This document shows positions 1-335 of a stretch of DNA of 335 bases, piece after piece. Both the position numbers and the translations under genes were made by a program. The stretch's first letter is position 1. The number at the start of each line of letters is the position of its first letter. The stretch is taken from NCBI RefSeq assembly GCF_003334385.1, contig NZ_QOWN01000199.1; one strand, given 5' to 3'. This stretch comes from Escherichia coli (GTDB lineage: Bacteria > Pseudomonadota > Gammaproteobacteria > Enterobacterales > Enterobacteriaceae). Below the pieces are notes generated by a model that saw only the letters and a program-made list of their open reading frames with translations, made no database searches and was not told the DNA's origin.

Positions 1-335
1 ACCACCTGCTCAATCGTACAACTGAAATCACTGTACCTGGCGTTATCTGTGACGCTCCACTCCCGGCACACCACCCTCACCGTCCGGTTATGTTTCGGTG
101 GTCGCCACAAAAAGGCACGGTAACCACCATGCCACGATAAAAATTCATCCAGCCAGCGCCGGGTTGGTTCATCCGTCACCCGGAACACCGCCTGAAACGT
201 CTTCAGTCTGGCATTAAGTCCCGTCGGTCGGCGCTGTTCATAACCGTCACCAAACCGAACCCTCACCACCGACGGTTTCTCACTCACCTGCATCCCTTCA
301 CGCGGGACCAGATGCAGCGTTTTTATCTCAGCCAC
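1..335 (-). CDS. M: Lambda-like phage minor tail protein M (tail-tip assembly protein, gpM homologue). 3' end truncated by the window edge at position 1, with a stop expected a few nt beyond. Start probably GTG at 333-335 or just upstream of the window.
   Basis: The reverse-complement frame beginning at plus-strand 335 is open for 111 consecutive codons, while the other two minus frames stop within 13 nt and the plus frames stop at 23-25, 121-123 and 136-138. The translation aligns along its whole length with lambda gpM as I recall it (MKTFRWKVKPGMDVASVPSVRKVRFGDGYSQRAPAGLNANLKTY...HGGWKSFLWTPPYEWRQIKVTCAKW...EFEQVVN), with about 40-45% identity by eye and one small indel. Shared motifs are GM.V..PSV..VRFGDGY.QR.P.GLNA.LKT, FL..HGG...FLW.PP, C..WS and FS...EQV. 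The plus strand is C-rich, so the coding strand is G/purine-rich, as is typical of coding sequence. Confidence 0.93.
   Translation of the reverse strand, partial: MAEIKTLHLVPREGMQVSEKPSVVRVRFGDGYEQRRPTGLNARLKTFQAVFRVTDEPTRRWLDEFLSWHGGYRAFLWRPPKHNRTVRVVCREWSVTDNARYSDFSCTIEQV
323..335 (-). CDS. Extreme 3' terminus (last 2-4 codons plus stop) of the upstream tail gene, presumably the tape-measure protein (lambda H equivalent). Frame is ambiguous: the stop is either TAA at plus 323-325 or TGA at plus 328-330.
   Basis: Inference only. The gpM homology begins at codon 4 of the open frame, and lambda's ATG position is occupied by ATA here, so M probably starts at the GTG at 333-335. Both alternative minus-strand frames terminate immediately (g-TGG-CTG-AGA-TAA and gt-GGC-TGA), which is what a tightly packed upstream gene ending here would look like. 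In lambda, as I recall, the H stop overlaps the M start (ATGA). Too short to verify by composition or homology. Confidence 0.25.

Follow-up and report, generated by a model that had tools for sequence, protein, structure and literature searches.

In bacteriophage lambda, the tail genes follow one another in the order H-M-L-K-I-J, and the product of the second, the tail tip protein gpM (PDB 8IYK, 8IYL, 8K35, 8XCG, 9E7M; Pfam PF05939), has a beta-sandwich fold and forms a ring between the tail tube and the tip. Each virion holds six copies of gpM, which together make up this hexameric distal-tail ring (PMC10721106). Through its E-loop face the ring contacts the gpL/gpJ ring, and through its opposite face the first ring of the gpV tube; both of these contacts are electrostatic (PMC10721106; PMC11101478). 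The gpM family is already known, and so is the tendency of prophage genes and other horizontally acquired genes of Escherichia coli to be poorly adapted in their codons. A second described system that bears on the locus presented here is the ileZ-argN(-argO) tRNA cassette of the Shiga-toxin phage 933W and its relatives, which lies downstream of the antitermination gene. The third of these tRNAs, argO, reads AGA and AGG, and a CAU anticodon that has been modified with lysidine reads ATA; to our knowledge, E. coli has no tRNA-Arg(UCG) of its own. For the 933W tRNAs, co-expression with the late genes and decoding of rare codons have reportedly been described or proposed before (Plunkett et al. 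1999).

Here we present a 335-nt stretch of E. coli DNA, called the window throughout, which is almost the whole gene M (encoding gpM) of a lambda-like prophage common in this species. Only one frame, reverse-complement frame 1, is open across the entire window, so the M product is encoded on the minus strand, a strand that the first-pass annotation had left unnamed. Coding on the plus strand was rejected, since all 3 of its frames contain stops and its ORFs are only 24-39 aa long, 39 aa being the maximum because the listing did not include ORFs extending past either end of the window. The gene ends 7 nt past window position 1, which makes the CDS 342 nt long, and the window holds its first 335 nt. 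The open frame is 100% identical to the RefSeq CDS WP_000807940.1, a 'phage tail protein' of E. coli EC2 (L001 20001-20342). The product is a single small domain of 113 residues, where its relatives have 108-118, and it matches Pfam PF05939 (Phage_min_tail; E = 2.7e-28, residues 6-112 on model positions 2-108 of 108), the phrog_14 'minor tail protein' family (E = 3.4e-36) and lambda gpM itself (PDB chain 8iyk_M, 'Tail tip protein M'; E = 8.1e-26, query 5-113 against chain 2-109, 45% identity). The likeness to lambda gpM is thus a full-length homology, between 113 residues here and 109 in lambda, with 3 extra residues at the N-terminus of the window's protein. By this homology, the window's gpM would share the beta-sandwich fold and the hexameric ring of its lambda counterpart, and would take the same part in the tail tip. 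A second solved chain, the gpM-like 'MF2 protein' (PDB 25vf_6, 113 aa), matches residues 23-111 with E = 1.3e-8. A search of NCBIfam gave no family match for the M product, a promoter scan of the window found none, and the best Rfam match of the window (E = 0.34) falls far under the gathering score, by which an RNA-family reading was rejected. The features of the gene are collected in Table 1.

Table 1. Gene M and its codons of interest in the window; what is found at the same position in other alleles or in lambda is given under remarks.
Feature	Window position	Strand	Remarks
Gene M (distal tail protein / tail tip protein gpM)	1..335	-	codons 1-111 and 2 nt of codon 112; 113 codons in total
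GTG start codon of M	333..335	-	first possible start; RefSeq annotates the same start
8-nt overlap of M start and H 3' end	328..335	-	H stop TGA at 330-328; junction CTGAGTGGCTGAGA
ATA (Ile), codon 4	324..326	-	anticodon match is the prophage CAU tRNA
CGT (common Arg)	302-300, 119-117	-	
CGC (common Arg)	233-231, 158-156	-	
AGG (Arg25)	261..263	-	lambda Lys AAG, one A-to-G step away
CGG (Arg27)	255..257	-	70%-identity alleles Lys AAG; lambda CGC
CGA (Arg36)	228..230	-	92-95% alleles CGC; 70% alleles CGG
AGA (Arg43)	207..209	-	92-95% alleles Gln CAA
CGG (Arg52)	180..182	-	70% alleles CGT
CGG (Arg59)	159..161	-	70% alleles CGT
CGA (Arg78)	102..104	-	70% alleles CGT
CGG (Arg84), conserved Arg	84..86	-	70% alleles AGG; lambda CGG
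AGG (Arg87)	75..77	-	70% alleles CGG; lambda Lys AAG
CGG (Arg91)	63..65	-	92% alleles CGT; 70% alleles AGG
AGG (Arg100)	36..38	-	92-94.6% alleles CGG; 70% alleles Met ATG

The first-pass annotation had supposed that the sequence is horizontally acquired phage DNA, and this can be seen directly from where the gene lies. In EC2, M is found inside a complete lambdoid prophage that extends from an integrase beside ompW to the tail fibre genes, and its neighbours are the tape measure gene H (L001 16766-20008), M itself (20001-20342), L (20342-21040), a C40 peptidase (K), a tail assembly protein (I) and J, the same order as in lambda. The window is 100% identical in EC2 and in 8 other strains among the matches listed, and 1175 of the 5426 complete genomes of E. 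coli carry it, at a median of 2 copies per genome. It is also found in 101 phage records, which belong for the most part to Stx-converting and 'PPompW' lambdoid phages. EC2 itself carries 2 copies of the M segment.

The manner in which M is started and ended also follows lambda, where the start of M likewise overlaps the end of H and its stop overlaps the start of L. An in-frame TGA stands directly 5' of the GTG, which is therefore the earliest start that M could have, and a GGAGGA Shine-Dalgarno sequence is found 8 nt upstream of it, outside the window; the alignment with lambda gpM sets in at residue 5 of the product. The two phages differ in the start codon and in the length of the overlap with H, with GTG and 8 nt here and ATG and 4 nt in lambda. 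At the other end of M, its stop codon shares nucleotides with the start codon of L (TGATG). Overlaps of this kind suggest that the translation of M may be coupled to that of H.

What drew attention to this gene is its arginine codons. Of the 111 complete codons in the window, 15 encode arginine (CGG 5, AGG 3, CGA 2, AGA 1, CGT 2, CGC 2), and ATA is one of its two isoleucine codons; there are also 4 lysines, 3 histidines, 8 glutamates and 5 aspartates, in a sequence with a G+C content of 55.8% and a GC3 of 61%. Every figure that had been reported earlier for arginine, for ATA and for basic and acidic residues was reproduced in the minus-strand frame. The rare arginine codons are dispersed along M, and there are no tandem AGG/AGA pairs.

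The codon adaptation index (CAI) puts this usage on a common scale. The CAI weights come from a set of 30 K-12 genes (L002; ribosomal-protein genes, tufA and fusA), K-12 being another strain than the carrier of the prophage. The CAI of M came to 0.239, far under the 0.56-0.84 of the reference genes (ribosomal, tuf, fus) themselves. It is also below all 62 chromosomal genes of a sample made up of 24 genes from the prophage flanks or L002 (0.293-0.704, median 0.39) and 38 further genes of the EC2 chromosome (0.243-0.614, median 0.389). The low CAI that the first-pass annotation had predicted is therefore borne out, and the value is not comparable to that of host core genes. Set against the 51 genes of the prophage (range 0.22-0.54, group medians 0.33-0.36), M is second lowest, with only xis beneath it, and is the lowest of the late genes. 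When its arginine codons are left out, however, the CAI rises to 0.367, which ranks 11th of 51 and lies near the prophage and chromosomal medians, so that the low-CAI signal of M is entirely an arginine effect: rare arginine codons and ATA are enriched throughout the prophage, and M stands at the low end of the prophage genes because it is rich in arginine. In its low codon adaptation, M behaves as prophage genes and other acquired genes of E. coli generally do, and nothing in this is distinctive of M. Within the late region, the major capsid protein (CAI 0.455, 26% rare arginine codons) and the major tail protein (CAI 0.451, 0 of 5 rare) rank first and second in CAI and have the smallest shares of rare arginine codons, which suggests that weak translational selection acts only where many copies are needed, that is, on the bulk virion proteins.

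How unusual the arginine codons of M appear depends on the background chosen. The rare share is 1.7% (7/414) in the ribosomal reference set and 23.0% in the chromosome sample (1092 arginine codons in 62 genes), and within the prophage it is 44.7% in late, 45.3% in early and 50.4% in lysis genes; in M it is 11/15, or 73%. Compared with the chromosome sample, this is a strong excess (P = 5e-5), and a far more extreme one compared with the ribosomal set. Compared with the late genes of its own prophage, the excess reaches P = 0.024 uncorrected, with 51 genes compared, and is lost after correction for that number; a multinomial test over the six codons gives P = 0.31. The G+C content is 56-60% on the side of M and the prophage and 52-54% in the flanking chromosomal genes, and the coding strand of the late region is 32.7% G and 24.7% C. 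The product of these late-region base frequencies predicts that 70.9% of arginine codons should be rare, with expected counts for the six codons of 1.9/2.4/2.3/3.2/2.1/3.0 against the 2/2/2/5/1/3 observed (P = 0.90). By this measure, the arginine codons of M look unselected. Since the rare share is 73% in M, 45% in the prophage and 23% in the chromosome, and 71% is expected, the excess is prophage-wide and is amplified in M by a doubled arginine content. There may still be a component particular to M beyond the prophage mean, given the nominal P of 0.024. The rare-arginine usage is real when measured against the chromosome, but it is not special to M, since 45% of arginine codons are rare across the prophage and base composition fits the counts.

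The other half of the matter is the protein itself, whose pI is about 9.9 and whose net charge is about +6. Arginine makes up 13.3% of its residues; the corresponding figure is 6.4% for the late genes (P = 0.006), and for the chromosome sample it is 5.5% (P = 0.001). Lambda gpM is likewise basic, with a pI of 9.6, and reaches this with 8 arginines and 8 lysines where the window's gpM has 15 and 4. Most full-length gpM relatives have a pI of 8.5-10 and 7-15 arginines, and the basic character is, as far as these sequences tell, a trait of the gpM family, a statement that covers 64 close enterobacterial relatives and lambda. The window's allele stands at the top of the family range for arginine because arginine replaces lysine and other residues in it. 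Its neighbours in the tail are acidic (major tail protein pI 5.5, L pI 4.64), and a basic gpM between acidic partners fits the electrostatic stacking seen in lambda, to which the additional arginines might contribute.

We therefore consider it very probable that the rare arginine codons of gene M are unselected, composition-like usage of the kind found across the prophage, made conspicuous by an arginine-rich, basic gpM. In this explanation, the late region, which is rich in G+C and in G on the coding strand, would set the arginine codon counts through its base composition, and an arginine content twice the usual would drag the CAI down to 0.24. Codon selection in M would be absent or very weak, in keeping with a need for six gpM copies per virion, while the lineage of the window may have accentuated the basicity of the family by placing arginine where relatives have lysine, glutamine, threonine or methionine. 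In some carriers, including the one that is identical to the window, ileZ-like CAU and argN-like UCG tRNAs may relieve CGA, CGG and ATA. M would then be a clean example of prophage codon usage that is unlike that of the host, and of a small, low-copy structural gene with no visible codon selection. It also illustrates that, in a short gene, one amino acid, here arginine, can almost by itself produce a low CAI.

Three other explanations, and a more elaborate one, were weighed against this reading. The one that survives best is mutational: part of the AGR/CGR excess would be due to arginines that this lineage gained from lysine (AAR), glutamine (CAR) or methionine (ATG) codons, several of them through one substitution in the middle of the codon, and such changes would land on rare codons. 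The alignment offers instances of this, as the AGG codons of Arg25 and Arg87 stand opposite lysine AAG in lambda, AGG of Arg100 opposite methionine ATG and CGG of Arg27 opposite lysine AAG in the 70% alleles, and AGA of Arg43 opposite glutamine CAA in the 92-95% alleles, which marks Arg43 as lineage-specific; the exchange of lysine for arginine between the lambda and window proteins points the same way. However, Arg43 (CAA to AGA) and Arg27 (AAG to CGG) would each need two changes, the conserved arginines 36, 52, 78, 84 and 91 use rare codons too, and the direction of change is presumed from the alignment. This origin is compatible with the composition-like usage we favour, and as the explanation of the rare codons we hold it to be possible but rather doubtful.

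The second alternative is that M is co-adapted to tRNAs supplied by the phage, in which case CGA, CGG and ATA would have been selected and would not be slow to decode during lytic growth. The window-identical prophage of EC2 does carry a tRNA-Arg(UCG) and a tRNA with a CAU anticodon that is annotated as tRNA-Ile and is presumably lysidine-modified (L003 3274-3435). Both genes are flanked by the antitermination gene/methyltransferase on one side and the lysis genes on the other. They share 99.4% identity with the pair that is annotated as argN/ileZ in 933W (AF125520.1). This pair is present in 284 phage records and resembles the 933W cassette in its location downstream of the antitermination gene as well as in identity, while the third tRNA of the 933W-type cassette, argO, is absent from the EC2 prophage. 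The anticodons of the pair match 7 of the 11 rare arginine codons of M (the two CGA and five CGG) and the single ATA, and CGA and CGG together make up 33% of arginine codons in the late genes against 17% in the chromosome sample. In the EC2 prophage, then, 'host-rare' need not mean 'poorly decoded', as the phage tRNAs may read these codons.

On the other side, no tRNA of the EC2 prophage matches the one AGA and three AGG codons, the codon counts are already predicted by base composition, and 4 of the 8 arginine codons of M are rare, against 11 of 15 here, in lambda, a phage that is not known to carry tRNA genes. The carriers of closely related alleles speak most directly. In Stx1a_2342 and Stx1a_11KH263 (L012, L013), which have a 99.4%-identical M allele, no tRNA gene was found in the 50 kb scanned of each, and PPompW_EH1846 (98.8% M allele) carries a different set, consisting of CAU, Lys(UUU) and Arg(UCU) tRNAs (L014 15344-15584). 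Since carriers of nearly the same allele have either no cassette or another one, the tail module circulates independently of the tRNA cassette, and strict co-adaptation of M to it is rejected. The codon usage of M is not chiefly due to co-adaptation, which we regard as improbable in the form stated. The genomes of some lambdoid phages do include tRNA genes with anticodons that fit part of the codon mismatch, and host-rare codons are best assessed with reference to the background of the element that carries them and to the tRNA genes of that element.

The third alternative is programmed slow translation, in which the rare arginine codons and the GTG start would throttle or pace the synthesis of gpM, whether to set stoichiometry within a coupled H-M-L unit or as an aid to folding. 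Such a role would suit a gene whose start overlaps the end of H and whose stop overlaps the start of L, whose CAI is below that of every other late gene, and whose product is a six-copy component in lambda (PMC10721106). But the rare codons are scattered with no AGG/AGA pairs in tandem, the surplus relative to the prophage background disappears once 51 genes are corrected for, and the other low-copy tail genes L, I and J have only 34-44% rare arginine codons. In addition, CGG, AGG and CGT interchange at the same positions among alleles, and these synonymous swaps, at Arg84, 87, 91 and 100, show free drift. We judge this explanation to be very improbable. Finally, a reading that joins the rare arginine codons, the GTG/H overlap and an internal hairpin into a late-phase control point, at which Q-modified polymerase and the phage tRNA-Arg(UCG) and tRNA-Ile would govern gpM and the downstream tail-tip proteins, and which would keep the tail-tip genes silent in the lysogen and timed or limited in lytic growth, is one to which we give almost no credence.

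The first-pass annotation had also taken the codon usage to fit low-level expression. Low expression is plausible, but the codon usage itself does not show it, and an expression level is not to be read from codon usage alone; taken together with the phage origin, the interpretation of the first-pass annotation is supported in part. A plausible case for low gpM translation comes by analogy from the six copies per virion of lambda, from the position of the GTG start within the 3' end of H, and from the high CAI and the few rare arginine codons of the two most abundant virion proteins.

The hairpin is a feature of the M coding (minus) strand at window 133-114, where GGCAUGGU-GGUU-ACCGUGCC is followed by UUUUUG (T-run 113-109) in the manner of a terminator. 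Its folding energy is -13 kcal/mol (z = -2.85 against shuffles), and a second, weaker candidate lies at 162-149. The hairpin segment is the same in all the 92-100% alleles that were fetched, with one allele differing only at the base after the T-run. Because the segment is invariant among these alleles, there is no covariation in the stem, and the hairpin was absent when looked for in the 70% alleles and in lambda; as a conserved element, it is unsupported. Runs of T or A occur at about window 109-113 and 143-147. In the M copy of phi467 (L010 121-492), the T run after the hairpin is shortened from T6 to T5, which shifts the frame and yields an aberrant product of 123 aa, and four database proteins (P0004, P0034, P0043 and P0050) change frame in the same stretch. 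Frame switches at such homopolymers imply that many prophage copies of M are pseudogenes or contain sequencing errors.

Several further observations concern the prophage as a whole. The EC2 prophage is flanked on the integrase side by ompW (L003 19641-20279)-yciC-yciB-yciA-tonB and on the tail side by yecD (L001 36154-36720)-aspS-nudB-yebC-ruvC, loci that are 637 kb apart in K-12 (1.314 and 1.951 Mb), and this distance implies a large inversion by recombination between lambdoid prophages at ompW and yecE. The 'portal protein' CDS has 861 aa in EC2 (noted at L001 11022-11243 and 11189-13774) and corresponds to two CDSs in PPompW_EH1846 (21835-23199 and 23196-24581), and the 645-aa 'major capsid protein' of EC2 is named 'prohead protease' in PPompW_EH1846; these discrepancies could be annotation differences, a frameshift or a fused protease-capsid gene. 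PPompW_EH1846 also has an ISEc20 insertion after its tRNA set, where EC2 has the lysis genes. Variable cargo is found 3' of the tail fibre genes: in EC2 (L001 29170-35184) it consists of a protein with a YadA C-terminal domain and a 1249-aa autotransporter, and at the same site PPompW_EH1846 carries the type III effectors EspO, NleG and EspM.
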